Positions 38,001 through 63,932 of a DNA stretch of 64,000 nt are shown one piece after another. The translations under genes were made by a program, and so were the position numbers. Position 1 is the stretch's first letter. Each line of letters starts with the position of its first letter. Source of the stretch: a virus (lineage: Duplodnaviria; Caudoviricetes); IMG/VR virus record IMGVR_UViG_3300031993_000019. One strand, 5' to 3'. Below the pieces are notes generated by a model, which did not search any database, was not told the DNA's origin, and saw only the letters and a program-made list of their open reading frames with translations.

Positions 38001-41000
38001 TCCAAGTTTAGAAGCGGTAATCGCATCTGGAAGAGCGATTCCATTTTCGTCAACATAATAATGTCCAGGATTTTCTCTCAGATCAGTAAATATAGGAGAA
38101 AAACCAGAAACAAATCTACCACCCTGATTGCCAGCCGCAGCCAAAACGGCAGACGCATAACTGTCTGGATTTCTCATTAATATTTCCCAATCTCTATCTG
38201 AAAAATTCCCTCCCTGTGTTGCTGCAATTTGTTCTGCCGCACTAACACCATACCTCTTGCCGTCTACCGTATACTCTGCCTCTCCATTCGCGATAGCTTT
38301 TTTCATCGCCTCAATGCGCTTTTGTATTGGTGTAGGAGCTGTTTGTTTTGTAGCACCATGTTCTCTTAACCATCTACCAATAGAATAATCGCTTGTAGAC
38401 ATGTCTCCTTCAAGCCTATTCGAAGAGACCAGGGCTTGGTGTAAAAATGTTCCCCTATTGCCTTTAGAAACACTCTTATCAATATAATCAGCAGCATACA
38501 TCAGCATTTCAAAAGGTATAGTGCCAATCGTATTTCTTGCACTTTGGCTCGCTTCGTCTGTGACCAGAAAATCATTCACGATCTGTTGTGCGGTCCTTGT
38601 ATCGTTTGCGCCAAATTCAGAAGATTTATACCGATCCGCATAACGCATGAGTTCTCTCTTAAAATCATTTCCTCCAGCCGCGCTCGCCTGCTGAGCCATT
38701 TGAATCAAAGCTTTATTCCCAACCGTATCTTTAAAAACCCCGATGTTTTTAAGTTCGCCAAAGTATTCACGAAGAGACATAGGATTGTTTTTATCCCACG
38801 CCTTTGCGGTAATATTTCGCAATTGAGAAATGGCTTCGGTTTGTTTTTGTGCGAATTCTTCCGGAGACAATTGACCATTTTCCTTATTAAGCTTGTTTAT
38901 GATATGCTTATATGAAATGGCGTCTTGCTCTACTGACTCAAACAGATATCTAACCATCTGTCCGATCGCAGAACTAGCGCCAACTCCTGTCATTTCAGAC
39001 ATAGACTTAGAATCTAAAAATCTTCTCGCCTCAGTAGCCTGAGAAGAAATAAGACCGATCTCTCCGCGGTTTGCTGCGCCAGCAAAAGACGCAGTTTCTA
39101 CGGTGGCGTGCGTAGGAAGCACGAGGTCTTCTCGCCAAATCTCCGCATCTTCTCCGCGAATTTCACGTACTCTTGCTATTGCCTCTGAAACCCTCTTGTG
39201 ATTTTCTTGTATCTTTCTAGCCGTTTTAATAAACGAACCAACACTCTTATCGTCCATTCCATTCATTCCAAGAAACGCAGAGACAAGAGCAAAGTGGTCT
39301 CGGTCGTAGTCCGTTCTATTGGAATCCGCAGCACCATATCCAATCTTCGCAGCCTCAGATCCGGTCATTGTGCTATCGACAAAAGCTCTTAAAAATCTAA
39401 CGTCCTGCCCTTGAATCGAAGGAAATCTTACGTCTTGAAGAAGAACGCCTTTTTCATTCACGCCGGAACCAAGAGTGACCGCCTTTAAAATGTCTTCTTT
39501 TATTTTTTTATTTGTCAGTCGTTTAGCTGGGCCCTTTCCAAAAACATCCCTATAAACAGCAGACAAATTAGCCCTGTCGTTACCTATAAGATCGCCCATC
39601 GCCTCTGGACTTAAAAACACAGCATCTTTAGCCCCAACAACATCTTGCCCCATTGCAATAGCAGTTGCTTCAAAAAATTTACCGCCGGGCATACGGGTGT
39701 GATAAGCCTGATCTATAATAGAAGAATCTTTATCGAAGGCATATCTTCTATATTCGGACATAAATCTGTTTACAGAATCTTGCGTTTTATTAAATTGTCT
39801 TTGGATCGCCTCTTGGTCATCCTTGGACTCTTCGACAACGCGATTATAGTCCGCCAAAGATCTTATAACAGAGTTCAAAGATTCATCAAAAGAAGAAAGC
39901 ATATATCCCAAAGAACCGCCTGCTTCTCCGCCAAGCCTATCAAATAGCTCCATTGCTTCTGTTTCTGGAGAAATATTAGGTACAATAATTTTTGAAGAAG
40001 AAAACTTGTTTCCGTACGAATCGTCGAACGAATATCCAAACGGGCCAAGATCCAAAAGTCCATAAGACGAACCACCCATAGAATCATAAAACTTTTTTAA
40101 ATTGCTTTCGTTATAAGATTCTTCTGTAACATATGGCCCGCGATAATCGAATCTGGAATCTCCGACTACACCAAAAACATCAAACGCTGGGACGCCTTTG
40201 TCGCCACCAGAAAAAGAAAGACCAAACGCGTTCTGATACGCATTTACCTTTTTCATAACAGCATCACGACGACCTGTATTGTAAATGTTTTCATAGTGTT
40301 GGACAAAATCTTCCGCATCCGGACCAGCCGCTCTCTTAATGGCCTCTATTTCTCTACGCCCATATTTAACACCGTTCAACCAACGATAATCATATGCCGC
40401 ATTAAGCCCTTCTTGAATCGTAAAGTTTTCACTAGGAAAATATTGCCTAATATTACCGAGGATCTTCTTCTGATCTTCCTTGTCAAGATCGATATTTTGC
40501 CCCAAAAACCTTGCAACAATCTCATTGTCTTTAATATCAAACATGTCTGCATATTTTGTTCCGGCAAAAATTTGACCTATTTGACGCTTTACGTCTTCCT
40601 TGTCTGACTTTGGATCTAAATATATATCTGTTAATCTACTAATTAAAAGACCGCCAAGATCGTTTGCGCTCATTTGTTCAATTCCGCGAAGAACGTCAAC
40701 ACCGCTGAACATATCGTTAAAAAATTTTTCTGGTAAATAAGAAGATTCGCTTCGATAGCCAGTATATCTACCAAGCGTTTTAGGGTTTGACCATCTGACT
40801 CTTTCGGAGAAATTTGCCTCAAAACCAGATTCTGTTTTAAAAACATTTGGAGAAAGAATATCCCAGGGTTCTATACCCATCAAATACCCTATAACAGCTT
40901 TATGTTTCTCCTCGTCAGTAGAATTTGCTTTAATTTTTCCAGAAGAAACGAGTTTTCTTTGTGCTCTATTATACTCTTCAAAGCCAAATGCCTTATGCCT

Positions 41001-43037
41001 CTGACGAGAAATATCAAACTCTCCCGATATTCCTTGTCTCATAATAGACGCGTTGTCGTGTAATCCGGGAACAACACCAACGGCAGCCGCAAGCTCCGGG
41101 TTTTTACTGGCCCACTCATTCCACTTATCCAAAAACTGTTTTTCGGTGATATATTGTATCCTATACAGCCGTTCTGTGGCATCGTCATAATCGTATTTGT
41201 TAGCCTTCCCATACTGCGTCTTAAAGATAGGAGCGTTTCTGTTTTTTCTTGCAAGCACGGCAGCGTTTGTAAGATCTCCAAAGTTTGTCCCCTGAGAAAC
41301 ATGTCGCGATGCATCCCATCCAATAGCAGCAACAGCATTTTCAAGATTCGCTGCAAGCTGAATAAATCCACCAGCTCTCGCAGCATTCGAGCCATATTGT
41401 GGTGACAAAGGAAGCGAGGACAAATCTTTCAACATCTTTTTCGCAGTCATGGAAGAAAGAATTTGGCTATAAAGATCGTTTCCCTTACTTAAATTAGCGA
41501 TCGCCTTAGCCTCATCATTGGTTCCTCGCATCTGCGCCCTGTACGCACCAATAAGATCATAAACACCTTTTACAACATCAGATTCCTGACGCGCATTAGA
41601 CCCTCCGATTTCCCTCATAATGGCGTCGATCATAGGCCTAATAACCATACGATTAGAAGAGTTTTCTCTTGATGCTCTTCTCGACATACTTTCATTAGAC
41701 GGCTCGTCGTATTTATATGCGCCTGCATAATCATACGGCATACCCCTCAAAGAATTCTTCTCTGCCATAGAAAGCGCAGATTTCAACCTTCTTTCATAAG
41801 CAGAACTGCTTTCTCCGCTTTTCTGTCTAACCTGAAGCAAGACACGACCGACTTCTTCGAGCATATATTCTGCAGTTGTAGAATAACGCGGAGCCCGAAC
41901 CTCGAATCCGCCAGATCTATTACTTGTTTCATTTGGCAAAACTATGATATTATTTGCCCCTCTTCCACCATTTCTTCTCATAGAAAGGCCGTTTACATCG
42001 TCAAGAGAACCATATCTAAACTTAGGGACCTTCGACCAATCAATCTTGTTAGACTTGACGTTCTTTTCTGGAAACGCCAAAATGTATTCGTCTCTTGAAT
42101 CACGTCCCAATACGAGCTTTCTTCCGGCTCTTCTCGCTTCGTTGCTAATATCCTCTAAATAATTTTGAGTGAAAGAAGAAGCATTTTCTTTTTTTACGCC
42201 ACCAGAATAAACCCTATTTATAACAGAGTTCGCAGAGTATTTAGAAAAATTTCTTTGAAATTTATCAAAGCTATTTTTATTTAAAACCCGTATTCCTTTA
42301 TTTTCAACCCCAGAAACGCCGGTTTCAAACGCCTTACGAACCGACATAACTCTCTGCTTCAACTTCTTGTTATCAAGCTCATATTTCTTACTAATTTTAT
42401 CAAGCTCTTCCCTAACTTTTAAATGATTTTGCAATGCATCATATGCCAGATCTTGATTTTGTTCGATATTTTTGATAAAACTATCTATTGCGCTTACCGG
42501 TTGATTAGAAAGCGTTCTTGCTATTTTAGAAATAGACACACTCTCTTTCAAGAGCGCTCTCTTTTTCCCTTCAAGAATCTTTCTGCCAAACGTGGAACCG
42601 GCAGACAAACGTTCGATCCTTTCGTTTGTTAAATCTGAAAGATCCTTGACTGTTTCTTCAATATAATTTCTATAGAGATCATTAACCGTTCTCTGTAATG
42701 CACCCTGAATTTTTGATATTTCATTATAATAATTTTTATCTTCATTCTTAGACCACTGAGATTTTTTATAATTGACATCAGCCTTTGCTTGTCTCACTAA
42801 ATTTGCGACCCTATCATCTATGTTCTGGATCGCCCCATTGGTAATAATATGAATAATCTGTCCTATATTTTTCTTGATATTTTCAGGGCTTTGCTTCTTT
42901 CTTTCTCCCTTTGGTGCATTAGGATTCGAATAATATAATTTAGAAATTAAATCATTAATTTGATTAAAAGATCCAAAAACATTTTCTCCATAATTATCAA
43001 TATTACCAAAATTTTGAGTTAAAAAATTATTGTCCAT
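32100..43037 (-). CDS. Tape measure protein (TP901-type core) with N-terminal RNA-polymerase-like and PD-(D/E)xK nuclease domains
   Basis: TMP core LNASMTNLRIITG...EWLRQG...AGTVGNALKTMLSR at about 35650-36560, Gly-rich hydrophobic segment, C-terminal coiled coil and ASG...INERGLEGI; enzyme motifs detailed in findings. Confidence 0.9.
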   Translation of the reverse strand: MDNNFLTQNFGNIDNYGENVFGSFNQINDLISKLYYSNPNAPKGERKKQSPENIKKNIGQIIHIITNGAIQNIDDRVANLVRQAKADVNYKKSQWSKNEDKNYYNEISKIQGALQRTVNDLYRNYIEETVKDLSDLTNERIERLSAGSTFGRKILEGKKRALLKESVSISKIARTLSNQPVSAIDSFIKNIEQNQDLAYDALQNHLKVREELDKISKKYELDNKKLKQRVMSVRKAFETGVSGVENKGIRVLNKNSFDKFQRNFSKYSANSVINRVYSGGVKKENASSFTQNYLEDISNEARRAGRKLVLGRDSRDEYILAFPEKNVKSNKIDWSKVPKFRYGSLDDVNGLSMRRNGGRGANNIIVLPNETSNRSGGFEVRAPRYSTTAEYMLEEVGRVLLQVRQKSGESSSAYERRLKSALSMAEKNSLRGMPYDYAGAYKYDEPSNESMSRRASRENSSNRMVIRPMIDAIMREIGGSNARQESDVVKGVYDLIGAYRAQMRGTNDEAKAIANLSKGNDLYSQILSSMTAKKMLKDLSSLPLSPQYGSNAARAGGFIQLAANLENAVAAIGWDASRHVSQGTNFGDLTNAAVLARKNRNAPIFKTQYGKANKYDYDDATERLYRIQYITEKQFLDKWNEWASKNPELAAAVGVVPGLHDNASIMRQGISGEFDISRQRHKAFGFEEYNRAQRKLVSSGKIKANSTDEEKHKAVIGYLMGIEPWDILSPNVFKTESGFEANFSERVRWSNPKTLGRYTGYRSESSYLPEKFFNDMFSGVDVLRGIEQMSANDLGGLLISRLTDIYLDPKSDKEDVKRQIGQIFAGTKYADMFDIKDNEIVARFLGQNIDLDKEDQKKILGNIRQYFPSENFTIQEGLNAAYDYRWLNGVKYGRREIEAIKRAAGPDAEDFVQHYENIYNTGRRDAVMKKVNAYQNAFGLSFSGGDKGVPAFDVFGVVGDSRFDYRGPYVTEESYNESNLKKFYDSMGGSSYGLLDLGPFGYSFDDSYGNKFSSSKIIVPNISPETEAMELFDRLGGEAGGSLGYMLSSFDESLNSVIRSLADYNRVVEESKDDQEAIQRQFNKTQDSVNRFMSEYRRYAFDKDSSIIDQAYHTRMPGGKFFEATAIAMGQDVVGAKDAVFLSPEAMGDLIGNDRANLSAVYRDVFGKGPAKRLTNKKIKEDILKAVTLGSGVNEKGVLLQDVRFPSIQGQDVRFLRAFVDSTMTGSEAAKIGYGAADSNRTDYDRDHFALVSAFLGMNGMDDKSVGSFIKTARKIQENHKRVSEAIARVREIRGEDAEIWREDLVLPTHATVETASFAGAANRGEIGLISSQATEARRFLDSKSMSEMTGVGASSAIGQMVRYLFESVEQDAISYKHIINKLNKENGQLSPEEFAQKQTEAISQLRNITAKAWDKNNPMSLREYFGELKNIGVFKDTVGNKALIQMAQQASAAGGNDFKRELMRYADRYKSSEFGANDTRTAQQIVNDFLVTDEASQSARNTIGTIPFEMLMYAADYIDKSVSKGNRGTFLHQALVSSNRLEGDMSTSDYSIGRWLREHGATKQTAPTPIQKRIEAMKKAIANGEAEYTVDGKRYGVSAAEQIAATQGGNFSDRDWEILMRNPDSYASAVLAAAGNQGGRFVSGFSPIFTDLRENPGHYYVDENGIALPDAITASKLGSILSGSSYHSGGSEFLELLDAYSGDKFSVEDIAKHGYTVSDINNFERARSSALSSIFGTLQHKEMEILGEALDVSMDDLFVKDNNGNNVLNKDVLSKYLLRFQNTEEGKKIWAQTEDRLKKFGYSPENIGSFGEASIYSTLAQSAISKSLGYQVAAREFSVGQLGKTALADRYFAGTIDQVYYDPKTNQMIVGDSKNKSGRDDFSQLMQLSYGKYALSQIQKELQGENFLGAAQKYGLVDENGKPTDFANILKTAEISENGTITRFNPTNDKVSAYRFRLLSNENVERALADAAAGVVYSQDQRQSLISSADISEIMGASIAPGTDLGRAIDIFSTKGGSQLSAFAKALDKRSRLKSTLGRLAMRGEQDSYAYLKAEEELEKLEGEGGALYMQDGSYTKVDQGVSQEMAKKMAQNSEDRDKRIQEQILRDAQEKQKDNKMFSGAWWLKDLSSGPATAFNMLFRGGVTTKLILKFFGDMKKVVQITEQLNASMTNLRIITGKNAEEANSMMKAYNGLAKELGVTTAAISQVGAEWLRQGYNIQETENLIEASTKLAKLGFMDQGAAVKSLTAAMKGFNLSATESMSIVDKLTTLDAKYATTAGDIATALTRVASVANNAGMSLDETAAAITAIIDTTQQDAGTVGNALKTMLSRYGNVKAGSFAVLEGAEEGDAENINDVERVLGALGIQIRTSKMEMRDFADVLDDIAEKWTTLTTVEQNAIAVALGGVRQRNTTVALLNSYQTYKKALEDEETSAGRANRKYEAYKDSIEFQKQELQAAWEGLVLKIDQSPVIKGVLWALTSTVELADKWVPALISAIPLLRTLINNRLTSHKQAIIDNTNAENRNTAALRGESSSESVPGYWGTKVKYAHGKHKGEDTAYTRGQIAGITVGSMVSSGLSYGAAGGGIIGNKIDEVVGTSEFENGVDSVISGATGAAGAGIGAAIGTMIAPGIGTALGATLGPILLDPVASLFKWLRHRDEIEMSRDVAKHKETLEAIQGVSSSVSSLRDSVDAGSSSWSSADWKRNQEAYLAIINAFESNSALRNSYKKLFGEEYNKPSGDVASLTSEEMSRLSAAQIVGEAEESFAASRIEISNLEKDLVKTLSKIAKERDEDKLNELNQKLSSIEVDLEKYQDSLQKSYLAASAITSGVSRMSAVQINNATLERVIRQVAEDWSKNNPNVFLGGTLTASARQDIIDYLRGDERYSSLFKNNTQTLSSRIRARSRAESLFGGYSGGIQGAISRLDEAGGYAELREQYGDSGIDLLYKADAAGIERIAHALNMTTEQALKAEKSLGWVTDATIANGVDGLVESFSGLGDILTEISHSSTISAKTMNSILENYSWLLNGEDGSFGTENIMKNLIDFFTGDAIEGAIGLVAKAALTNDKTWEAFIEKYRDPKEYGALGLSEEDWLGIQGSSNFLGASAIMFNNTDALNAFAKLAGELTGDFKIAEVIQKILVEAEENALQNEISNLESVKESLEDVNKQREKELELIKAKQALENAQKEKKRVYREGVGFVYTSDQQAIKDAQENVEKLERERDQRDIQYQIDMLNQQKDILANIENNEQLESIYKLIEKFMEGKEGSVLGSILSFNKKELAKKIQEGVTNSLGENAQSVSQEEADAEEAVYTSILSDLNRDDENSWINKAQDALGGLSVASVLQNNKSPYYGTAKQMYSDKLDQLSTSSAKLTDYNKMGIGKNYDVSGYDEKRRYFNELKDQNRWLRVYIPDGEGWSHPQGARDAGVMMYYSQSSQDQVPSDLKRGKADQLLLSKVDIGGGVHQFQHAETFDDLENENYVGYVFVNTDTSNEYGYYKGIDGWHEIRLQNGDRELSPPTTLDGVTNYSLLRNASGALSFSGGPTLINERGLEGIITPEGTITSLPAKSGILPADLTKNLWSLGEVAPNLITQLSGKSFNRIDEKKSEDNSMHVGTLNATFNTDSGFDASAFWNSVKSQISLTKNNH
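37200..38030 (-). other. PD-(D/E)xK nuclease domain within the tape measure protein (limits approximate)
   Basis: FGTLQHKEME, AREF, FAGTID (D1858), IVGDSK (D1873/K1875), QLMQLSYG. Confidence 0.75.
38400..41300 (-). other. Two-barrel RNA polymerase-like domain within the tape measure protein (limits approximate)
   Basis: LHDNASIM (D661), KTLGRYTGYR (K753), VRFPSI (R1204), DYDRD (D1243-D1247; nt 39297-39311), EIGLISS (about aa 1327), EQDAISYKH. Confidence 0.7.
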
Positions 43038-43830: not shown

Positions 43831-44850
43831 TCAAATCGAATTCTTACGATTAAATTCGATCATAAAATTGGCAAGTTCTTTATCTTTGTCGCGATCATCA
43901 TATGTTGGGACCTGATCAGTCTTCCATCTAAAAATTTGCTGCACAACCTCTTTAGGGATTCCTATCTTTAGTAAGTGTGTACAACACATATGTCTGAACG
44001 CGTGACTATATACACTCTTACCCAAATATTTTTCAATAACAGATACAAATGAATTAGCCGTAGAAATTGTTGCACGCGATGTTCCGCCATAACTAGACGT
44101 AAACAGATCATTTGTAATAACACCCGTTTCGGCACGATGTTTTACCCAAAGATCGACATATTTTTTAACGTCACACACATTTGCAAATACAATTTTTGAA
44201 ACAACGTTTCCAGCTTTACCCCTACCCTTACTACGGACCGGTTCTGTTTCATATGCAGCGCCGTTAAACACTAAATGGTTTTCCTCAAAATCAGAAACTT
44301 TAAACTGAATCAGTTCTGCTTTACGGGCGCCAGAAGAAGCCGCAACCGCAAGAAATGCGGCGGCCTGATATTTCTTGTTTTTTACAAGCTCTTCAAGACA
44401 CTCCTTAATCTCATCAACCGTAAGAATTGTCTTTTCCCTAACAACCGTCTTATTAACAGGTTCAAGAACTTTAACAATATTTCTAAAGGTCGGATAGTCA
44501 TCGTCCATAATTCTTTCAATGAAATTTGAAAAACTCGAAAGAACAGCCCTTAAAGAACAGATCCGGTTGCTTGAAACATTTAAATCGGTTTGCAAATATG
44601 AAAAGAATCTTACAAACTGTCTTTTCTTCATATCAACAAAAAACGTATTATCGTTTTCTTTTGCATTCCAAACGGCCCAAATTTTCAACTGTGCTTCATA
44701 TTGTGAAATCGTCTGCGGACTTTTATCGACAGACTTCATATACCCTATAAACTCACGAATGAGTTTTTGATTTTCTTTACTCACAAGAGCATCATAATCT
44801 TTACTCAGCCCGGAATGATAAACCGTACTGCGACCATCTTTTTTAGTCAT
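43831..44850 (-). CDS. Tyrosine recombinase (XerC/D-integrase family)
   Basis: SAM-like N domain (KSPQTISQY), GARKAEL, SKGRG, HAFRH, W at the His/Trp position, PTYD. Confidence 0.9.
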   Translation of the reverse strand: MTKKDGRSTVYHSGLSKDYDALVSKENQKLIREFIGYMKSVDKSPQTISQYEAQLKIWAVWNAKENDNTFFVDMKKRQFVRFFSYLQTDLNVSSNRICSLRAVLSSFSNFIERIMDDDYPTFRNIVKVLEPVNKTVVREKTILTVDEIKECLEELVKNKKYQAAAFLAVAASSGARKAELIQFKVSDFEENHLVFNGAAYETEPVRSKGRGKAGNVVSKIVFANVCDVKKYVDLWVKHRAETGVITNDLFTSSYGGTSRATISTANSFVSVIEKYLGKSVYSHAFRHMCCTHLLKIGIPKEVVQQIFRWKTDQVPTYDDRDKDKELANFMIEFNRKNSI

Positions 44851-44916: not shown

Positions 44917-44947
44917 AAAAACGCCCCGGAGATTTCTCCCCGGGGCG
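44917..44947 (-). terminator. Intrinsic terminator
   Basis: CGCCCCGG...CCGGGGCG followed by TTTTT. Confidence 0.85.
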
Positions 44948-45048
44948 AAAGCTTAAACATAAAAAGAAATAACCGCCTCAATATCAAACAGGACGATTCT
45001 TTCTTAAAAAAAATAATCCATAGTGTTTTAATAGTATTTTATAAAAAA

Positions 45049-48000
45049 TTAGGACGAAATTGCCTGAATATACTCTGCATAGTCAGACCACCCGGATGCG
45101 GATTTGTACGTGTCAACACTAGCCGCCGGAACACTGATCATACATGGCGGCATTTTTTTGCCATATGTACTATGATAACCAAAGATCCCATGTACATCCA
45201 TGGCGGGCGGTTCAATCGCCAAAAGCACCATGGAGGTCAAGCCCAAGCAATCATCAAACACCCATCCCCCAATACTCTCGAGGCTATCCGAGATTACAAC
45301 CGAGGTCAGCCCGGTACAGCCGGAGAACGCATAGTTTCCGATGCTCGTGACGCCGTTGCCAATGGTGACCGAGGTCAGCCCGGTACAGCCGGAGAACGCA
45401 TCGCTTCCGATGCTCGTGACGCCGTTCCCGATGGTGACCGAGGTCAGTCCGGTGCAACCGGAGAACGCAGAGTTTCCGATGCTCGTGACGCCGTCCGGGA
45501 TGGTGATGAAGGTCAGCCCGGTGCAACCGCGGAACGCAAAGTTTCCGATGCTCGTCACGCCATTCCCAATCGTGACCGAGGTCAGTCCGGTGCAACCGTA
45601 GAACGCAGAGCCACCGATGCTCGTGACGCCGTCCGGAATCACCAGATCAATCACGAATTCGTCATTGATATAGAGATTGTGCGCGTAATAGAGCGGATTA
45701 GCGTTAACTGATCCAAACTCGATCCCGCACCATCCTGCAACGTCTCCGGTATAGTAGACCGAGGTCAGTCCGGTGCAACCGGAGAACGCAGAGCTTCCGA
45801 TGCTCGTGACGCAGTCCGGGATGGTGATCGAGGTCAGCCCGGAGCAACTGTAGAACGCAAACGACGGGATGTTCTCGACGTTGTCTCCAAACGTTACGGT
45901 CGTCAGATTGGAGCAACCGTAGAAGATTGGACGAGAGCTTGATCCCGCCGACGTGCAGTTAGTGGCGTTCCATACGACCGAGGTCAGTTCGGTGCAATTG
46001 CGGAATGCATAGTTCCCGATACTTGCGACGTTTTCCGGAATGGTGACCGAGGTCAGCCCGGTGCAACCGAGGAACGCATATCCTCCGATGCTCATGACGC
46101 CGTTGCCGATGGTAACCGAGGTCAGCCCGGTACAGTTCTCGAACGCGCCGAAGAGAATGTTCCCGCCCGTGACCGTGACCGACCGAAGAGAGGCGGGAAT
46201 GTAGTAAGTGGTTGTGGTCGTAGAGCTCGTACTGCTACCATAATAAGTTTGTTGGGTTGCCACCCCTCCAGTATAACTATCCTCCCCGAAGATGTAGCCG
46301 AACGGATACTGGTAGGTATCGTTTTCGGTCTTTCCGGCTTCCCCACCAACAAACGGAATTGTAATTTCTTCAAGAGAAGAGCAACCAGAAAACACGCCCT
46401 CTGCAATTCCTTCAACGCCACTGCCGACAACAACCCTTTTTAAACTAGAACAATTAGAAAATGCACCGGCATAAATATCTGTAACGCTATCTGGAATAAC
46501 AATAGAAGCAAGTTCTGTGCACCCACTAAACAAGTTTCCGTTAATAGCGGACAGTTCTCCTCCGTTTGGAAGAGAAGCCATTTTTAAATTTGTACAACCA
46601 GAAAACGCTCCGGACCCAATAAACGTAACGTTATTTGGAATGTCCATAGACGTAATCCCTGTGCATCCAGCAAACGAACCAGAGCCAATAGAAAAGTTAG
46701 GAGACGCTGGAAAAACAACGGTTGTTAACTGAACTTGATTTTCAAATGCGTTATCTCCAACACCTTCAACTATATCTCCGCTAGGAGAAGATTCAGGAAT
46801 AACAAGATATGTGTCCGCGCAAACACCAATGCCAACAACGTTACAGGTGCCGTCGCCATTACTAACATATTCAAGTCCAACAGACGGTTCCGCTGTTGTA
46901 CAAACCACGCTATCAGACCCAATAATTCCATAATTTCCAACAATAGGAGCCTCTTCAAGATTAGTTTGAATCGCATCGTACTCTTCGTCTGTCACAATAT
47001 ATGGAAACACCGCAACATACCAGTTACCAGCGGAGGCCCACTTTCCATTCGAAGAAAGACCAACCTGAACGTAGTCATCCACGCCCTGCTTAATAAATCC
47101 ATTAACCATCTTTCCTTCTGGATTGCTAATACTCTTAATAAGTTGATGAGTAATGCTTAAATTATCAAGAACCCTATGCGACCCGTCTTTATATATTCCA
47201 TACACAATAGGCGAACGCGCCATATTAGCAGAAGTCTGATCGATCGCAACACCAATTAAATCAGTTCGGAAATCTGGATTATGGTTTGTTTCAAGAATTT
47301 CTGCATAATACTCCTTCCCAGTAACCGGATCCACAGAGGCCAACGCGCTTCCGTTTAATGCAATAGTGGCGGCGGAACTCATATTTAATCCAATATCAAA
47401 TTGGCCGTCAAGTTGCAAGCGTGGAATTTTAACAATCAACTGACCAACAGGCTCTCCGGTAGTAACATTTGCCGTATCTCCGGCGTATTCGTTTGCAGTC
47501 ATAATAGCAACGACCTCTCCAGGGAGGAATGTAGCCGAAACATCATAAAGAATAGCCGTTGGGTCGTTTTTAAAATATGAAATCGTAATGACATCATTAA
47601 CAACAAACTTACCGGAAAGCTGAGATGCAGAAATTGTTCTCATTTGCTCACCGGAAACTTGAAGCGGAACCTCAGAACTCGTTCCAGACTTGCAACTAAC
47701 CTTTCGGCCCCAACAAAGAACACCATTTAGCCCACAAAGATGCCCAACAGAAACAGCCGAATTATCAAGTATAATATCTCCACCGTCCCAAACTTTTTGT
47801 TCAGTCGCAAGAATACTCGCAATAAGGCTCGAGCTTTGTTTTGCGCCAAGATTTAGACGAAGGTAGTTAATATCAAACATTGCATCTGTAAGTTGGAGGG
47901 TCATTCCGGTTGTATGACCAAATCGTCCAAACAACTTCGCACCCTGTCCGCCGCGAACGTCTTCCATTGATATCTGAAACCCAATAGAAGAATCTGTTAA

Positions 48001-48090
48001 TGTATGCGCAGAAGCAAAGTGCCTAAGCTCGCCATTAACACGCTCAAAGAGTTCGACGTTTGCGACGGACGCCAAAAACCTTTTTGCCAT
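45049..48090 (-). CDS. Major tail protein paralog fused to C-terminal BspA-type LRRs
   Basis: The first ~390 aa align with 56371..57570 (first ~85 aa nearly identical); the rest is TxIGxxAFxGCTGLTSVTI repeats. Confidence 0.88.
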   Translation of the reverse strand: MAKRFLASVANVELFERVNGELRHFASAHTLTDSSIGFQISMEDVRGGQGAKLFGRFGHTTGMTLQLTDAMFDINYLRLNLGAKQSSSLIASILATEQKVWDGGDIILDNSAVSVGHLCGLNGVLCWGRKVSCKSGTSSEVPLQVSGEQMRTISASQLSGKFVVNDVITISYFKNDPTAILYDVSATFLPGEVVAIMTANEYAGDTANVTTGEPVGQLIVKIPRLQLDGQFDIGLNMSSAATIALNGSALASVDPVTGKEYYAEILETNHNPDFRTDLIGVAIDQTSANMARSPIVYGIYKDGSHRVLDNLSITHQLIKSISNPEGKMVNGFIKQGVDDYVQVGLSSNGKWASAGNWYVAVFPYIVTDEEYDAIQTNLEEAPIVGNYGIIGSDSVVCTTAEPSVGLEYVSNGDGTCNVVGIGVCADTYLVIPESSPSGDIVEGVGDNAFENQVQLTTVVFPASPNFSIGSGSFAGCTGITSMDIPNNVTFIGSGAFSGCTNLKMASLPNGGELSAINGNLFSGCTELASIVIPDSVTDIYAGAFSNCSSLKRVVVGSGVEGIAEGVFSGCSSLEEITIPFVGGEAGKTENDTYQYPFGYIFGEDSYTGGVATQQTYYGSSTSSTTTTTYYIPASLRSVTVTGGNILFGAFENCTGLTSVTIGNGVMSIGGYAFLGCTGLTSVTIPENVASIGNYAFRNCTELTSVVWNATNCTSAGSSSRPIFYGCSNLTTVTFGDNVENIPSFAFYSCSGLTSITIPDCVTSIGSSAFSGCTGLTSVYYTGDVAGWCGIEFGSVNANPLYYAHNLYINDEFVIDLVIPDGVTSIGGSAFYGCTGLTSVTIGNGVTSIGNFAFRGCTGLTFITIPDGVTSIGNSAFSGCTGLTSVTIGNGVTSIGSDAFSGCTGLTSVTIGNGVTSIGNYAFSGCTGLTSVVISDSLESIGGWVFDDCLGLTSMVLLAIEPPAMDVHGIFGYHSTYGKKMPPCMISVPAASVDTYKSASGWSDYAEYIQAISS
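45300..46130 (-). repeat. GC-rich 69-bp tandem repeats encoding 23-aa LRR units
   Basis: CCGATGCTCGT(G/C)ACGCC recurs at 45338, 45407, 45476, 45545 and 45614, with further interrupted copies. Confidence 0.9.
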
Positions 48091-48149
48091 TTTAATTCTC
48101 CTTTACATTTTATTTTTTTGATAAAAGATAATTTTTATTCAATTATTAG

Positions 48150-49043
48150 TTAAGATGGAATTGCTTGAATACGATTTGCATATTTCGACCATCCATCAGC
48201 GCTTTTATATACATCTACGCTTGCAAGCGGAACATAGATTGGACAGTTGTTTGTATCATCAAATGTATTATAACCACGCTTAGGGTCTTCTTCCATCCCT
48301 GGAACACTACTAGCAAGTATTGTTATAGACACAAGCATATAACATTCAGCGAAAGCACGGTATCCAATATTATCAATGCTCTTCCCGATGACAACAGAAG
48401 TCAGTCCGGAGCAATCGTAAAATGCGTAGTCTCCAATGTGAGTGACGGTGTCCAAAATAGTAAGGGAAGTCGGTCCGGTGCAACCCGAGAATGCTAACCA
48501 ATCGATACCCGTGACTGTATCCCCGTCTGGAGAAACATCAGGAATCACCAGATCCAAATCCGTGCAAGTTCCGATACCGCTGACATAGCAAGTTCCGTCA
48601 CCCTCAGATTCATAAGAAAGACCTTCGCTCCAACAAACAACCTGGTATGCTCCGGTGTTTCCGTCCCAGCTCGTTCCTTTGGTAATAGACGTCCACTGAG
48701 AAGAATAGCCGTGAAAATAAATAGTGGTAAGAGAAGTACATCCGTAAAAAGCGTAATCGCCGATACTCGTAACCGTAGTAGGAATGTGAACCACAGTAAG
48801 ATTGGTACATCCGTAGAAGGTGTAGTCCCCAATCTCAGTTGCGCCTTCAAGCATATCCAGAGTAATCTCTGTCACGGACTTATCAACCACGGAGGCGATA
48901 TTATCTGATGGAATCTCTTCGATTTTTGAAGAGTACTGCCCAAGAGGAGCGTCTCCAACAACAACTCCTCGCGATTCAATTGCCGACTTAATACCTGAAA
49001 CCGCGTTGGACAGGTAAGCAAGTTTTTGTTGTGTTGTTCCCAT
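48150..49043 (-). CDS. BspA-type LRR protein with a conserved N-terminal anchor
   Basis: MGTTQQKLAY...IKSAIESRGV; IGDYAFYGC repeats; paralog of the next gene. Confidence 0.85.
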   Translation of the reverse strand: MGTTQQKLAYLSNAVSGIKSAIESRGVVVGDAPLGQYSSKIEEIPSDNIASVVDKSVTEITLDMLEGATEIGDYTFYGCTNLTVVHIPTTVTSIGDYAFYGCTSLTTIYFHGYSSQWTSITKGTSWDGNTGAYQVVCWSEGLSYESEGDGTCYVSGIGTCTDLDLVIPDVSPDGDTVTGIDWLAFSGCTGPTSLTILDTVTHIGDYAFYDCSGLTSVVIGKSIDNIGYRAFAECYMLVSITILASSVPGMEEDPKRGYNTFDDTNNCPIYVPLASVDVYKSADGWSKYANRIQAIPS

Positions 49044-49058
49044 TTATTACACCTCCTA

Positions 49059-50324
49059 TTAAGATTTAGGAATATCACCATCGGTGCAATGAACGACATA
49101 ATTACCAGTGCCATGATCCCATTTATCGCTAGAGGTATACGTTTCATATTTATCAATCACATTCCACTGTGCTACTGTTCCGGTATAAGTAATTGAAATC
49201 AAACTAGAACAACCACCAAATGCAGTCTGACCAATGCTTGTAACACTATTTGGAATTACAACAGAAACAAGCGCAGAACAAGAGTAGAACGTACTATAGA
49301 CAATATTACTTATGCCACCTGGAATCGTAACCGAGAGCAATCCCGTACAACCATAGAACGCACATCCTCCGATGGTTGTGACGCCGTCCGGGATTGTGAC
49401 TGAGGTCAAAGAGGTACAGCCGGAGAACGCCCAGTTTCCAATGCTCGTCACACCGTCCGGGATGGTGATCGTAGTTAGCCCGGAGCAGTTGTAGAAAGCA
49501 GAGCCACCGATGCTCGTGACGCCGTCCGGAATGGTGATGAAGGTCAGCCCGGTGCAACCGCGGAACGCAAAGTTTCCGATGCTCGTCACGCCTTTCCCGA
49601 TGGTAACCGAGGTCAGCCCGGAGCAACCGGAGAACGCACGCTCCCCGATGCTCGTGACGCCGTCCGGGATGGTGATCGAGGTCAGACCGGTGCAACCGTT
49701 GAACGCAGATTGCCCAATACTGGTGACACTATCCGGGATTGTGACTGAGGTCAGCTTGGATAAGCCGCTAAACGCAGATCGCCCAATACTGGTGACACTA
49801 TCCCCATTAAGGGATGCTGACGGAATTACAATATCGGTATCGGTGCAAGTACCAATACCACTAACAGAACAAGTACCATCGCCATTTGTGGTAAAAGAAA
49901 GACCTAAACTACCATAAATGACAGAATATGCTCCTGTATTCCCATCCCAGTTAGTGCCCTTAGTTATAGAAGACCACTGAGCGCTTGTGCCCCAAAAGTA
50001 TATAGTAGCAAGAGACGAACACCCGTAAAAAGCGTAATCGCCAATGCTCGTAACGGTAGCAGGAATTTCAATCGTAGTAAGATTCGTTTGATTATAAAAG
50101 GCATAATCACCAATCTGCGTGATGCCTTCAATCATTCTCTCAGTAACCTCTGTAAGAGCCTTCTCTGCAAAACTCGTTGTTCCATCTGTCGAGATACTTT
50201 CAATCAAGGAAGCATAATCTCCGAGAGGGGTATCACCCACTACAATACCCCTCTCCTCAAGCACACCCTTAATCCCGTTAATTGCATTAGCAGTATATGT
50301 TAATTTTTGAGCAGTAGTTCCCAT
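49059..50324 (-). CDS. BspA-type LRR protein with a conserved N-terminal anchor
   Basis: Start reassigned to ATG 50324 (MGTTAQKL) by alignment with the paralog; tandem 23-aa LRRs; ends VHCTDG. Confidence 0.85.
   Translation of the reverse strand: MGTTAQKLTYTANAINGIKGVLEERGIVVGDTPLGDYASLIESISTDGTTSFAEKALTEVTERMIEGITQIGDYAFYNQTNLTTIEIPATVTSIGDYAFYGCSSLATIYFWGTSAQWSSITKGTNWDGNTGAYSVIYGSLGLSFTTNGDGTCSVSGIGTCTDTDIVIPSASLNGDSVTSIGRSAFSGLSKLTSVTIPDSVTSIGQSAFNGCTGLTSITIPDGVTSIGERAFSGCSGLTSVTIGKGVTSIGNFAFRGCTGLTFITIPDGVTSIGGSAFYNCSGLTTITIPDGVTSIGNWAFSGCTSLTSVTIPDGVTTIGGCAFYGCTGLLSVTIPGGISNIVYSTFYSCSALVSVVIPNSVTSIGQTAFGGCSSLISITYTGTVAQWNVIDKYETYTSSDKWDHGTGNYVVHCTDGDIPKS
49368..49800 (-). repeat. 69-bp tandem LRR-coding repeats sharing near-identical DNA with 45300-46130
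   Basis: 49507-49592 matches 45476-45561 at 85 of 86 nt. Confidence 0.9.
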
Positions 50325-50325
50325 A

Positions 50326-51726
50326 TTACACCACCACTCCATTTATAGCATCAAGAGCCGAGTTGATGTCGCCAACAATATCACCTACATATTCTTCGGT
50401 TGCAATATGGCCGTTTGCAGTTGGCTCCTGAAGTCTTTTTTCTCCAATATAAACATGATGCCCGTAGGTGCCATTATAACAAACAGCAAAAGATGTTCTC
50501 CTGTTATTACTAGAACTACCAGACCCAACAACGAACCACGCGTCTGGCTGTTTATTACTGCTTATTTTATTATATTGACCAACAATAAACTGTCCATCTT
50601 CAAGCGGTTTTAAATGGTTACCAAATAAGAACACTTTACTTTTTGCATTATTTATAGTGTCATCTTTACTATTACTATTATTGTCGCCAAACAGGTAAAC
50701 ATTTGATACCTTATTGCTTGAATCCGCTCCACCATAAATGTGACTAGAATAGCCAAAAACGGTGCAGTCTGTTAAATTACTATCTAGTCTATTATTGTTT
50801 CCACCAAAAACATTTACAAATTCTACATCATCACCAATAGTAGCGCCACTACCCGAGACAATTGAATACTGAAACGTGTCACCAACTATATGATTCGCTC
50901 CGACGATTAAATCGCTCATGGCATGCGCACCAATTGTATGATCATTACCAAACACCATCAAATATCTAGACAAATTGCTAGTCGTAGTGTCGGACGGAAC
51001 AAAAACATCATGCTTAGGGTTAGCATCTACAGGAGACCGATCGCAATCAATATTGATCTCATTACCGAATATTAAACTCTCTTTAGCATTACTACCAACA
51101 TGATAGCCGCCAAGTAAGTTCTGATTACGATGACAATAAACACGATACCCGAAACCATAAGAATTTTCACCGTAAATATGAATGTCCCCACCAAAAGCGC
51201 CAGACTCAGAAGCTTCGGCTCCGGTGGTGTTTCGAGAGCCAAAAGTCACAGAAAATGCACCGTTTGCCGTGTTTGTTCTGTCTACATCGCCATCAACATT
51301 TTCTGTAATTGTCTTGACAGACGATCTGCCTACCGATTTAATAACCGGAAGTCCATTAACAGATCCGGTGCCGTCCTGATTGGCCCCAATCTTACCGTCA
51401 TCCGTCGACCCAAGGATAGAACCGGCAAGCTGATTTGTGAACGGTGTAATAGTGTCAACACCATCGTCGCGCCATCCAATATTGTCGTTCTCGTAATAAT
51501 GCCAAATATGATAGGTACTTACAACGACGACTGCAATTCCCTCATATGGACTCGTATAACCGAGACCATCAACAAAGGCACCAATTTCAGAAGCGTTTGG
51601 ATCTGTTTTTTCGGAATAAAGCAGACGAGTCGTTTTCCCCTCAAGTCTGTCAACTCTTTCGTTTGTTCTTTTAAGGCCGGCTTGAGCCGCGCCGGCTATG
51701 CCTCTTGCAAGAATATCCACAGCCAT
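50326..51726 (-). CDS. Fibre/adhesin with YadA-head-like beta-roll repeats
   Basis: Roughly 14-aa S/V-x-x-FG-xx-N repeats; VGQYN...FVVGSG neck-like motif; paralog of 53910..56270. Confidence 0.7.
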   Translation of the reverse strand: MAVDILARGIAGAAQAGLKRTNERVDRLEGKTTRLLYSEKTDPNASEIGAFVDGLGYTSPYEGIAVVVVSTYHIWHYYENDNIGWRDDGVDTITPFTNQLAGSILGSTDDGKIGANQDGTGSVNGLPVIKSVGRSSVKTITENVDGDVDRTNTANGAFSVTFGSRNTTGAEASESGAFGGDIHIYGENSYGFGYRVYCHRNQNLLGGYHVGSNAKESLIFGNEINIDCDRSPVDANPKHDVFVPSDTTTSNLSRYLMVFGNDHTIGAHAMSDLIVGANHIVGDTFQYSIVSGSGATIGDDVEFVNVFGGNNNRLDSNLTDCTVFGYSSHIYGGADSSNKVSNVYLFGDNNSNSKDDTINNAKSKVFLFGNHLKPLEDGQFIVGQYNKISSNKQPDAWFVVGSGSSSNNRRTSFAVCYNGTYGHHVYIGEKRLQEPTANGHIATEEYVGDIVGDINSALDAINGVVV

Positions 51727-51729
51727 AAC

Positions 51730-52080
51730 TTACACCCCCGTATTCACGGTACGACCAAAAATAGTAACGTTCCCGCCAGAAATAGCAGTGATGTTTGCAC
51801 GAACCTCTTTGACCCCGCTAATATCAACATTATAAATACCGGTCGCAGAAATCGACTCTACAACATCAAACGTCTTAGCCTCAATGCATGCAAGATCAAA
51901 CCACTCGCTATTATTCTGGTTATTTGCGCGCCCCTGCATCTTAATGGTCATAGACGAGGCAGTACCAGAAATCTCTACTGCGAGTAAATCTGATTGAACA
52001 TTCACATACGGCTTCATATCGCCAGAAGTAGATGTAGAAGATCTTTCTCTATAAAAAACCCAATTATCAATATTTTGCAT
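51730..52080 (-). CDS. Small beta-sandwich hypothetical protein, probably virion-associated
   Basis: ORF with strong RBS; alternating beta-strand pattern. Confidence 0.6.
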   Translation of the reverse strand: MQNIDNWVFYRERSSTSTSGDMKPYVNVQSDLLAVEISGTASSMTIKMQGRANNQNNSEWFDLACIEAKTFDVVESISATGIYNVDISGVKEVRANITAISGGNVTIFGRTVNTGV

Positions 52081-52122
52081 AATATATTTTCCTCCTTACT
52101 GTGCTTTCGCACAAAATAACAC

Positions 52123-52158
52123 ATAATAAAATAAGAATTTTAACAATTAGATAAGTGC
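52123..52158. repeat. Imperfect direct repeat flanking licD, copy 1 (contains TTTTATTAT on the minus strand)
   Basis: About 32/37 identity with 53088-53124. Confidence 0.75.
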
Positions 52159-52170
52159 TAATCTTCAATG

Positions 52171-53061
52171 TTAAAAAAAACACCTTTTGTTCAATATAAT
52201 TTCTCTTATCTGTTGGTTGTTAAGACATTCATAATCTCTGTAAGAGTGCTTGTTGTCTAAAATAACCAACGACAACATATTGTCGATGTTTTTACGTAGT
52301 TCAATATGATAGTCTCCATAATACACCCTCAGGATTTCGTCATACCCATATGGGACTCTCATTTTTTCTTTACAACCAATGAAATCTTTTTCAAGATAAT
52401 CCGAAAAACAACTTTCTGAAATAGAGCATCCGTTATATCCAAGGCACCACCAGGATGGACAGAAAACAACTCCGCTATCTTTGTTTAAATTGGAAGACTC
52501 TGTTAAAACAGCATTTAAATAAGCGGCTCGCTCCATACAACCCTTTAAATATATATCTGCCTCTCTTTCAGAAAATGTAGATCTAAAACCAAAAGCATTT
52601 TCCTTTCTTAGTTGCTCGTTTATGTGCTCCAGTTCGTTTTGTTTTTTCAAATCTTTTGGAATAAAATCCAAAGGTTCAATATTCATACCAACACATGGCG
52701 GGATGAAAAAATGCTTACCATCTGGCCTATAAAACCTAGAAAGATCTTTTAGCTGTAAGCAAGTAGTTTGAAGATCTATAAGAAACATTGTATAACGATT
52801 TGTTTTTGTTGTTTTATAGGATTCCAAGAAAAATCTATCCCCAAAAGCAGAATCCCCACATTCAAGGAGTTTATTATAATCTTCTCTTGGCATAACTACG
52901 TCCGCATCGTCGTCCCACGGAATCATACCTCCATGGCGAATACACCCAAGAAGCGTTCCTGAATCGACAAACCATCTCAAACCGTTTTCTCGACACACCC
53001 TGGCGAACTCATCCAGTAATGCTCTGCAAGAAGCGTGTAGAATTTCAACCTTTTCACTCAC
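52171..53061 (-). CDS. licD: LicD/fukutin-family phosphotransferase
   Basis: DSGTLLGCIRHGGMIPWDDDADVVMPREDY and VPYGYDEILRVYYGDY. Confidence 0.9.
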   Translation of the reverse strand: MSEKVEILHASCRALLDEFARVCRENGLRWFVDSGTLLGCIRHGGMIPWDDDADVVMPREDYNKLLECGDSAFGDRFFLESYKTTKTNRYTMFLIDLQTTCLQLKDLSRFYRPDGKHFFIPPCVGMNIEPLDFIPKDLKKQNELEHINEQLRKENAFGFRSTFSEREADIYLKGCMERAAYLNAVLTESSNLNKDSGVVFCPSWWCLGYNGCSISESCFSDYLEKDFIGCKEKMRVPYGYDEILRVYYGDYHIELRKNIDNMLSLVILDNKHSYRDYECLNNQQIREIILNKRCFF

Positions 53062-53087
53062 AGCCTGTCTCCTTTCGCCATGTCGTA

Positions 53088-53124
53088 ATAATAAAATCAG
53101 AAATTTAACAAATTAGGTAAGTAC
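53088..53124. repeat. Imperfect direct repeat flanking licD, copy 2
   Basis: About 32/37 identity with 52123-52158. Confidence 0.75.
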
Positions 53125-53271
53125 TTGTTTCCAAATTTAAAATTTTCCCGCCGTGGTCGCACATGTGAATTGATATAAATTTTTGTAGGTCGGATCGGGC
53201 GCGTTTATACCCGACAGAATCCGACATGCACAAATTCGCATTCGTTTCAACTTCTTTCAGTGTTGAAATTA

Positions 53272-53282
53272 CCCCCCCCCCC
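53272..53282 (-). repeat. G11 homopolymer within a hairpin-rich intergenic region
   Basis: 11 consecutive C on the + strand. Confidence 0.9.
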
Positions 53283-53305
53283 ATTCCGGTGAATGGGTGC
53301 CGGTG

Positions 53306-53812
53306 TTATCGTGACATCGTCGCTATGAACGTGTTTTCGGGGATCGTAATGGTTGGGGTGTCTCCCGTGTTTGCCGAAAGCAATTCTGTCCCGTCTTTAT
53401 CGTAACATGCGATATAGAGAATAATATCGATCGAGGACAGAACATCACCTATATCAATAATATAAGCGGTTGCGTCCTCTGCGATAGGGGTGGGTTCTTC
53501 ACCATTTACCCGCAAATCGGTAGAGGGGCGGGTTTTTACCAAAACACATTTGGTCTCCGCCGGAGTCGGAGGCGTGGGTTCGGGGTCAATCCACTCGCCG
53601 TCGCTGTAGGTGTACAACTTGCCTGTAATTTCATTCACAGCGGTAGATTCTTCTGCCGGTTCTCCATAATCAAAAAAGCAAGAATAATTGGAAGAATTAA
53701 ACGGCTTTTCAGCGCTCGGAAGATCAGACGTGGTGTCCCCTGTTCCCATGGTCAAATGAAGAATATATTTACCAGACGCGGCATCATATTCCTCTTCAAG
53801 TAAATTAATCAT
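53306..53812 (-). CDS. Two-domain hypothetical virion protein with a Pro/Thr linker
   Basis: Start ATG 53812 after AAGGAGG; DPEPTPPTPAE linker. Confidence 0.7.
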   Translation of the reverse strand: MINLLEEEYDAASGKYILHLTMGTGDTTSDLPSAEKPFNSSNYSCFFDYGEPAEESTAVNEITGKLYTYSDGEWIDPEPTPPTPAETKCVLVKTRPSTDLRVNGEEPTPIAEDATAYIIDIGDVLSSIDIILYIACYDKDGTELLSANTGDTPTITIPENTFIATMSR

Positions 53813-53854
53813 TTTTGTTTTCCTCCTTATAAAAAATAATAAAATCAACATTTT

Positions 53855-53888
53855 AAAACGAATCCGGCCAAGATCTCTCCGGGCCGGG
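53855..53888 (-). terminator. Probable intrinsic terminator
   Basis: CCGGCC...GGCCGG followed by ATTCGTTTT. Confidence 0.6.
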
Positions 53889-53909
53889 TTATTACTAAAT
53901 CTATCGTAA

Positions 53910-56270: not shown

Positions 56271-56320
56271 CTCCTTATAATGAAATTTTAATTTTGTGTG
56301 CTTTTCTCAACATAAAGCGT

Positions 56321-56357
56321 AAAAAAAATACGCCCCACCCGTAGGTGGAGCGTATTT
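56321..56357 (-). terminator. Intrinsic terminator after the major tail gene
   Basis: TACGCTCCACC-TACG-GGTGGGGCGTA followed by T8. Confidence 0.9.
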
Positions 56358-56370
56358 AAAAGCTGTAGAA

Positions 56371-63344: not shown

Positions 63345-63932
63345 TTAAAGCACTTCCACGAGGTACTTGTAGTCGCCAGAGGCCACGGTGGTACCAATGG
63401 TCATGGGGACAGCAGCACGAATCGCGATGTTGAGCCGACTGGCAGTGGTCGACGCAGCGGGCGTCAGAAGGACGCTGTTAGCAGTCAGGTTGGCATACTG
63501 ACCAACGGTAGGAGCAGACGCAAAGTTGCCCGACCCGAGCCAGAACATGTCACCTTTCTTGATCACACGATAACGAACAGGGTAGCCAGCCTCGACCTGC
63601 AGGTCGACGAGCTTGTTACCAATTTTGTAGTTGTTACCAGCAATAACACCGTTCGACACGGAGTCGATATCGATAACAACAACGTCGTCAGCGGTCAGAG
63701 CCGCGGACGCGGGGGCGTACGCATATTTCACATTCCAGTCCTTCATACCGGTATAAGCAGAACCGGTGTAGGTGGTATCGTCGGCGAGGCCGCCGAGCAC
63801 AACAAACGCGCCGTCAGAAACAGTTGCGGGGACAAACGCATTGTCAGTGCCCGTACCGAACTTGCAGGAACGCACATAGGCCTGAATGTCTTCGCACACC
63901 ATAGAGCCGACATCAAAAACTTTAGTAGCCAT
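63345..63932 (-). CDS. Capsid decoration/cement protein-like
   Basis: Directly upstream of the capsid gene, beta-rich, AGYPVRYRVIKKGD, same codon bias. Confidence 0.6.
   Translation of the reverse strand: MATKVFDVGSMVCEDIQAYVRSCKFGTGTDNAFVPATVSDGAFVVLGGLADDTTYTGSAYTGMKDWNVKYAYAPASAALTADDVVVIDIDSVSNGVIAGNNYKIGNKLVDLQVEAGYPVRYRVIKKGDMFWLGSGNFASAPTVGQYANLTANSVLLTPAASTTASRLNIAIRAAVPMTIGTTVASGDYKYLVEVL

Follow-up and report, generated by a model that had tools for sequence, protein, structure and literature searches.

The stretch of DNA analysed here, 64,000 nucleotides of the virus record IMGVR_UViG_3300031993_000019 (Duplodnaviria; Caudoviricetes) and referred to below as the window, raises the question of why a tailed phage should encode two tail tube proteins, one of which continues into a very long array of leucine-rich repeats (LRRs). 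The gene in question was found at 45049-48090 on the minus strand, like every other gene of this region, and it forms an intact open reading frame (ORF) of 1013 aa in which a paralog of the tail tube protein is fused to an LRR array of the BspA type. Its product is termed P0001, and its plain counterpart, the major tail tube protein P0002 (399 aa), is encoded at 56371-57570 on the same strand. From the sequences, structural models and analogy with other phages, we lean towards the view that P0001 is a sub-stoichiometric tube subunit which presents an LRR adhesin at the end of a flexible linker.

The fusion gene and its plain counterpart

That 56371-57570 encodes the tail tube protein was a premise on which an earlier note on this DNA, made from its letters, had staked its reading, and it is borne out by fold, sequence profile, synteny and sequence neighbours. 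The AlphaFold2 (AF2) model of P0002, built on 74 homologs and with a predicted local distance difference test score (pLDDT) of 87, was matched by Foldseek to the tail tube protein of SPR (8xkn_B; E 1e-15, TMt 0.79). With VIA, residues 1-273 were found to resemble YSD1 (6xgr; Z 14.3, root mean square deviation 9.6, 240 residues aligned) and JBD30 (8rk3; Z 13.6, root mean square deviation 9.5, 238 aligned), with many further tube proteins also matching and Hcp chains reaching Z values of ~9-10. The tail-tube beta-sandwich with its long hairpin is present in the models of both P0002 and P0001.

The sequence searches point the same way. The YomU_Tube profile (PF27173) is recorded on P0001, the nearest ESM Atlas clusters are 95-99% YomU_Tube, and the family profile retrieved the SPR tube chains from the PDB (E 2.5e-11). 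A hidden Markov model (HMM) of the tube family built here recognizes P0001 at 8e-104 and P0002 at 2e-112. P0002 also matches PHROG 2729 ('virion structural protein'), and its identity to the protein annotated as the major tail protein in Enterocloster phage PMBT24 is 33%. Gene order is the same in that phage and in the window over the stretch that begins with the capsid gene, takes in six further genes and ends with the tube gene. The tail of PMBT24 is long and non-contractile (PMC11035940). The P0002 gene stands between the head and connector genes and the gene for the tape measure protein (32100-43037; 3645 aa, with a PhageMin_Tail domain), and the fusion gene belongs to the same module, 9.5 kb downstream of P0002 and ahead of the tape measure gene.

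Two cysteines with a family-wide conservation of at least 90% are missing from P0001, P0002 and a close family member, P0003, at positions 170 (Thr) and 257 (Ala/Val/Ile) in the numbering of P0002. Inter-ring disulfides have been described in a different tube family, PF08813 (PMC13576161).

The precomputed Pfam domains of P0001 are PF27173 (YomU_Tube) and PF13306. When compared by BLASTP, its residues 1-398 were found to align with the whole of P0002 with 292/400 positions identical (73%), 3 gaps and E = 0, a similarity which lies far beyond chance and which upholds the description of this N-terminus as a full paralog in the earlier note. The note had also remarked that the first ~85 aa are nearly identical and mostly use different codons, and the codon alignment indeed shows identity at 82 of the 85 residues, with a different codon at 48 of these 82. 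Nucleotide identity is 79% in this segment and 67% across the entire shared part, and the longest exact nucleotide run common to the two tube genes is 11 nt. Recombination between the tube copies was considered as well and appears unlikely because this run is so short.

In the AF2 model of P0001 (pLDDT 80), the tube domain is intact and a disordered linker leads on to an LRR solenoid. The tube-fold domain comprises aa 1-273 (47272-48090, minus strand) and was matched by Foldseek to 8xkn_B (E 1e-10, TMt 0.71); the substitution rates of its segments are given below. It is followed by a beta-rich C-terminal decoration domain, aa 274-383 (46942-47271, minus strand), which is modelled mostly at a pLDDT of ~90, is common to P0002, is 56% identical to its counterpart there and shows the lowest conservation of any part of the family proteins. 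A predicted flexible linker of aa 384-403 (46882-46941, minus strand; pLDDT < 50) starts near the point at which P0002 ends (its residue 399), and the LRR solenoid with its C-terminal cap occupies aa 404-1013 (45052-46881, minus strand).

The assignment of the latter part to BspA-type LRRs, which the note had placed after the tube part, is correct. Pfam LRR_5 (PF13306) matches P0001 from about residue 405 in four stretches with E 1e-109 and 362 bits, as against a cutoff of 27.7. The repeat period is that of LRR_5, with 69-nt repeat families in the DNA and 13 regular 23-aa units in the protein, and the AF2 model has the short strands every ~23 residues that are typical of the solenoid fold. LRR blocks were modelled at 405-582, 629-782 and 814-1013, with a helical cap; two loops were modelled at low confidence. 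Foldseek placed the model close to LRR surface proteins of gut bacteria (4gt6, 4fs7 and 4h09; E 1e-10 to 5e-13).

The LRR part of P0001 opens with the motif 'GLxY..DGTC..IVIP' and closes with the cap. The same entry motif was found in the products of two neighbouring genes, P0153 (427 aa; 49059-50342, minus strand; LRR_5 E 2.5e-82) and P0154 (297 aa; 48150-49043, minus strand; LRR_5 E 1.5e-29), and a fusion-like cap ends P0154. Both neighbours have a different N-terminal anchor of ~145 aa. As the arrays are alike and the anchors are not, one type of array is mounted on different anchors, that of P0001 being the tube subunit. The array of P0153 is related to that of the fusion also through near-identical repeat DNA, including a 62-nt run which is identical in the two genes, whereas the tube parts are fully diverged. 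LRR DNA is thus, to judge from these repeats, exchanged between genes.

The best relatives of the P0001 LRR part are large surface proteins on contigs of bacterial size (40-54% identity), some of them named Lachnospiraceae or Firmicutes and several carrying dockerin or Flg_new domains. Contigs with a similarity of at least 80% to the LRR repeats (45004-46005 and 49012-50013) were present at ~15x the phage baseline depth in 4/4 metagenomes. It follows that near-identical LRR units are common among other organisms from these habitats, pointing to a shared pool of LRRs from which units are exchanged.

Such mobility also bears on whether the fusion is real and retained. LRR repeats are prone to recombination, the 62-nt run is shared with an adjacent gene, and assemblies break within the repeats, whose depth is so far above baseline; the fusion might on these grounds be an assembly chimera, or a decaying neutral by-product of mosaic recombination. 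We consider this very improbable. A Logan contig from the likely source run, and so from the same sample, matches 46101-49527 without differences and bridges the tube/LRR junction, the frame of 1013 codons is intact, the rate of nonsynonymous change in the tube part is very low against saturated synonymous change, both paralogs are found in samples of other studies, and the architecture recurs in independent assemblies of relatives (P0170 and the cluster of P0018, both described below).

Divergence of the two copies and possible signs of unequal expression

In a maximum-likelihood (ML) tree of 35 family members, the N-terminus of P0001 and P0002 are sisters (support 99/99), with P0003 next to them (100/100). 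The tube part of P0001 is therefore a true sister paralog, and its origin by duplication within this lineage, or by a swap with a very close relative, is supported by the tree. The proposal in the note that a gene duplication lies behind the second tube gene thus stands, with a very close relative as the alternative source. The end branches are 0.27 for P0001 and 0.071 for P0002, so the fused copy evolved about four times faster. On the evidence of the two sequences, the second tube copy is an old, well-preserved duplicate.

The divergence is distributed very unevenly along the protein. By the Nei-Gojobori method, the proportion of differing synonymous sites (pS) between the two copies is 0.84, which is past saturation; a value above 0.75 arises because the codon preferences of the two copies are opposite. 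The nonsynonymous rate (dN) is 0.021 in residues 1-85, 0.275 in residues 86-170, 0.09 in residues 171-273 and 0.387 in residues 274-399. The very low value in the first segment, set against saturated synonymous sites, shows that purifying selection is strong, in support of the earlier suggestion that it acts on the polymerising interface. Residues 1-85 are also the most conserved segment across the family (0.54), and in the AF2 model of P0002 they form the first strands and the long hairpin at 31-69.

Where the two copies differ, the family itself is variable, with a mean conservation of 0.26 at such positions compared with 0.43 (p 2e-9). Among the 31 positions which are at least 80% conserved in the family, the copies differ only at 257, where P0002 already lacks the family's cysteine, and every family-conserved residue present in P0002 is also present in P0001. 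As all of these residues are retained by the fusion, the duplicate keeps what a tube subunit needs.

The uneven divergence could also be read in another way, in which P0001 forms one or a few specialised rings at a fixed place, near the tail tip (the starting point of tube polymerisation) or under the neck, giving a collar of six LRR adhesins in a role likened to that of evolved Dit proteins or neck passage structures. The roughly fourfold faster evolution of P0001 would suit such a role, as the changes in residues 86-170 and 274-399 (dN 0.28-0.39) could retune contacts with a neighbouring protein, and lactococcal phages are known to have ancillary adhesins of a collar-like kind (PMC6669499). 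This arrangement nevertheless appears unlikely to us, since the core that makes the ring and inter-ring contacts is almost the same as in P0002 (82/85 residues), the fusion changes no family-conserved residue which P0002 retains, and no sign of another partner was seen in the sequence.

The codon usage of the two copies differs strongly. The G+C content at third codon positions (GC3) is 0.59 in P0002 and 0.64 in the capsid gene, as compared with 0.34 in the tube part of P0001, 0.31 in the integrase and 0.34 in the tape measure gene. Within P0001, the LRR part has a GC3 of 0.56 versus 0.34 for the tube part. This contrast between the tube genes fits a low expression of the fusion and a high expression of P0002, and we infer that it may reflect translational selection on the abundant copy which is absent on the minor one. 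A split in codon usage was seen across the window as a whole, with GC3 of 0.59-0.67 in the capsid gene (62240-63322), 63345-63932, the major tube gene, 16823-18007 and 18022-19200, and of 0.29-0.52 in most other genes; the genes at 16823-18007 and 18022-19200 are unrelated to one another.

Both tube genes have strong Shine-Dalgarno sites of their own, that of the fusion being AAAGGAG, 7 nt upstream of its ATG (48098-48104, minus strand; read from the sequence). A strong terminator-like hairpin with a 14-bp stem and a T run stands directly after the P0002 gene (56326-56357, minus strand), and an intrinsic terminator-like hairpin with an 11-bp stem, 9 GC pairs and a T run follows the fusion gene (44922-44947, minus strand). 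The fusion is thereby the final gene of an accessory block behind the terminator of P0002, a placement which fits lower expression and is no proof of it. Taken together, codon usage and the place behind a strong terminator fit a minor subunit of low abundance. A putative late-promoter motif, TTTTATTAT, has 7 matches in the window where 1.7 are expected and lies upstream of the major tube gene, and no exact copy of TTTTATTAT was found directly upstream of the fusion gene. There were no RNA runs among the matching sequencing runs listed.

The adhesin region and the tube family in relatives

Between P0002 and the tape measure gene the genes encode, in order, a 786-aa fibre-like protein, a 211-aa protein, a LicD-family protein, a 116-aa protein, a 466-aa fibre-like protein, the two small LRR proteins, the fusion, a tyrosine recombinase and a 234-aa protein. 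The recombinase (43831-44850, minus strand; Phage_integrase E 8e-12) closes the variable adhesin region and is conserved at this place in relatives. Its homologs were found in 25 related loci (L010, L012, L014, L015, L026, L031, L036 and L037 being among those that carry it), with the best being ~51% identical, and they lie downstream of the tube gene wherever they could be placed; homologs of the 234-aa protein follow the recombinase in 19 related loci. A site between tube and tape measure genes is an odd, fixed place for an integrase.

The interval from the tube gene to the recombinase (45049-56270 in the window) is a hypervariable cassette region. Among relatives (L004-L047) it can hold as much as 8 kb of genes for fibre-like and small LRR proteins. 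The interval of L017, in contrast, has neither fibre nor LRR genes, and nothing but a RuvC-like gene and one for a small membrane protein is present there. From this variable content it follows that the fusion is located in a hot spot of adhesin genes inside the tail module. The interval proteins of relatives include some of 125-665 aa with an N-terminal 'MA(V/I)D..ARALA' and small LRR proteins which start with 'MAKNNNLKDFV'. A role of the recombinase in shuffling LRRs, by inversion or as a shufflon, was considered and rejected, if on weak grounds: no strong inverted repeats were found, all genes lie on one strand and the recombinase is kept in the adhesin-free L017.

The region contains a second pair of paralogs, namely the 786-aa (53910-56270) and 466-aa (50326-51726) proteins, which are 39% identical over ~370 residues. 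Both are repetitive, rich in Gly and Asn and resemble fibre heads, and a weak Hint-like match was obtained for the 786-aa protein. A 2307-aa protein (22986-29909), encoded downstream of the tape measure gene, has eight LRR_5 stretches, which brings the LRR genes of the virion module to four. A RuvC-like resolvase gene (30746-31432) comes later than the tape measure gene in this window, but precedes it in PMBT24 and several relatives.

A gene of this kind, lying in a variable accessory region between terminators, might serve a purpose outside the virion, whether by acting as a sponge or decoy against host defences that recognise tube proteins, by regulating assembly, or through an LRR part acting in the cell or after lysis. 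The defence protein DSR2 senses SPbeta-like tube proteins, and DSR2-SPR tube entries of the PDB were among the fold matches obtained here. We nonetheless hold such a function to be improbable. A decoy has no need for 97% conservation of the polymerising core, an LRR of 600 aa of the surface-adhesin type has no obvious use in the cytoplasm, and the gene sits inside the tail module beside adhesin-like genes, with bacterial cell-surface proteins as the closest relatives of its LRR part.

An exhaustive HMMER search yielded 394 cluster representatives of the tube family, mostly of ~350 aa, and LRR-type repeats were found in 10 of the best 150. These repeats are C-terminal in P0046, in P0088 (full-length form P0170, 1233 aa) and in P0129, which has DUF285 repeats. 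They are N-terminal, with a junction that has no start codon, in P0049, P0051, P0071, P0077, P0079 and P0082, and P0018 combines an internal insertion with an LRR. The cluster of P0018 comprises 12 sequences, of which ten are full-length, and the contigs that carry them reach 131 kb. P0170 is collinear with P0001 at 37% identity, its nearest plain relative being P0011 (54%). Fusions to LRRs or LRR-like repeats occupy five or more separate places in the tree. It is possible, and we put it forward tentatively, that tube subunits of YomU-family gut phages have repeatedly and independently been made into anchors of LRRs (N-terminal, C-terminal or internal), here through a low-expressed paralog, and that they form a class of 'evolved tail tube proteins'.

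The best-matching sequencing run comes from a bovine gut metagenome, which is probably where this DNA originated. Three other studies yielded contigs that match both the P0002 gene and the tube part of the fusion (47003-48180) at ~97-99% identity, and none of the pieces listed for those studies spans the tube/LRR junction. Since both genes are matched, both paralogs are maintained in related strains. Word-indexed searches for fused forms returned P0001 itself alone, scans of viral contigs with the fused representatives gave LRR matches, one unfused relative or nothing, and no prophage relatives were found in two scans of genome contigs. Nine phage-collection records match P0002, each at one place.

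Proposed role and comparison with known tube decorations

We propose that the phage makes two tube proteins from two genes, P0002 being the abundant building block of the tube. P0001 adds to a nearly unchanged core the outer C-terminal domain, the flexible linker of ~20 residues and the LRR solenoid of ~600 residues. In small amounts it could co-polymerise with P0002 around the tape measure protein, and some ring positions would thereby bear an LRR adhesin which points outward. These adhesins may then provide multivalent, low-affinity binding of the tail to the host envelope, or to gut or rumen material, before the receptor is engaged by the tip. Incorporation of P0001 into the virion, its low stoichiometry, its position in the tail and the ligand of its LRR part are all, as we infer them, parts of this proposal.

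Contact between the two proteins was modelled with ESMFold2, using residues 1-285 of two P0002 chains and one P0001 chain. The hetero-complex scored 0.53, the best of 3 controls scoring 0.00, and the runs agreed in at least 82% of contacts with a partner pLDDT of at least 68. The mark applied is reached by 58/80 solved complexes and 2/110 mismatched pairs, but only 7 of those 80 solved complexes and both of the passing mismatches reach the mark at <=0.60. This result lends weak support to a hetero-contact. As SPR tube assemblies are solved, the pass may reflect mere likeness to them.

Several observations weigh against a minor subunit scattered along the tube. A single plain tube gene, with no second copy, was found in 44 loci from closer relatives, covered with up to 10 kb of flanking DNA, and in five whole relatives, four of which were judged complete; the two-gene arrangement is thus not a need of the whole group. 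The fusions of relatives are known here from their protein sequences. An appendage of 600 aa is far larger than known tube decorations and might hinder the packing of rings. Residues 86-170 and 274-399 have clearly diverged between the copies, which could reflect specialisation to a particular site.

If P0001 is part of the tail, it would represent a natural case of mixed tube assembly from two genes and would give a handle on how these phages find their hosts or persist in the gut. It would also mean that tube subunits tolerate very large cargo, which is of relevance to phage display and to the engineering of nanotubes.

The nearest known structures for the tube part are the SPbeta YomU and SPR tube proteins (PF27173; PDB 8xkn, 8k98 and 9jgh), whose family and fold are common to residues 1-273 of P0001 and P0002. 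The solved proteins are, however, only 264-270 aa long, lack an LRR and share ~20% identity with the window's proteins in structural alignment. For the remainder of P0001 the closest systems are the BspA-type LRR_5 surface proteins of gut Firmicutes and Bacteroidota, with which it shares the repeat family and the solenoid fold. These are anchored to bacterial cells, whereas the anchor of P0001 is a phage tube subunit.

A decorated tube is known from SPP1, in which gp17.1 and gp17.1* occur at ~3:1 and the extended form, with a C-terminal FN3-like (fibronectin type III-like) extension of 87 aa, co-assembles with the plain one (PMC6316719). The earlier note had drawn this comparison and it is an apt one, as minority subunits in SPP1 carry an exposed, non-essential C-terminal adhesion domain on a polymerising part common to both forms (PMC6316719). 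SPP1 uses one gene and a +1 frameshift, whereas two genes 9.5 kb apart, 73% identical in their products, were found here, with an LRR extension of ~600 aa. The TpeX proteins of lactococcal 936-group phages likewise place a module that binds host cells specifically on part of the tube subunits, and avidity along the tail has been proposed for them (PMC6669499). What is proposed for P0001 resembles TpeX in that a larger binding module would be tethered to some tube subunits. TpeX differs in being made by frameshifting, in having a BppA-like carbohydrate-binding module and a total of 470-530 aa, and in having neither an LRR nor a paralogous gene.

Programmed frameshifting of the SPP1 gp17.1* and 936 TpeX type does not describe the present locus, where there are two genes, each with its own ribosome binding site. 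A frameshift extension of P0002 was also considered and rejected: the only overlapping frame (56307-56732) stops 64 nt past the stop codon, and an extension is impossible because the gene ends in a stop and then a terminator. No paper was found on LRR-tube fusions or on BspA domains on phage tail tubes, and nothing relevant was found in the literature on YomU. The decoration of siphophage tails with small immunoglobulin-like (Ig) or FN3 modules, or with carbohydrate-binding modules, is already known and is produced by frameshifting. Here gene duplication would apparently serve the same end, and the adhesin, taken from the LRR repertoire that characterises surface proteins of gut Firmicutes, is far larger. 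Comparable fusions recur across this family, whose members are large, uncultured phages of the gut and rumen. What appears to be new is thus the use of a diverged paralog instead of a frameshift, the LRR_5 module of ~600 aa and the recurrence within the family.

The type VI secretion system provides a further parallel in its 'evolved' Hcp proteins, which are paralogs of the tube subunit with a C-terminal effector domain, encoded by genes of their own, and whose extensions are delivered toxins. P0001 is likewise a paralog of a tube subunit with a C-terminal fusion, and the tube fold is shared, but evolved Hcp belongs to a different machine and its extensions are not outward-facing adhesins. Should a class of 'evolved tail tube proteins' exist, it would stand in parallel to evolved Dit and evolved Hcp, and the whole tail would be made adhesive with modules drawn from the LRR pool of host surfaces.

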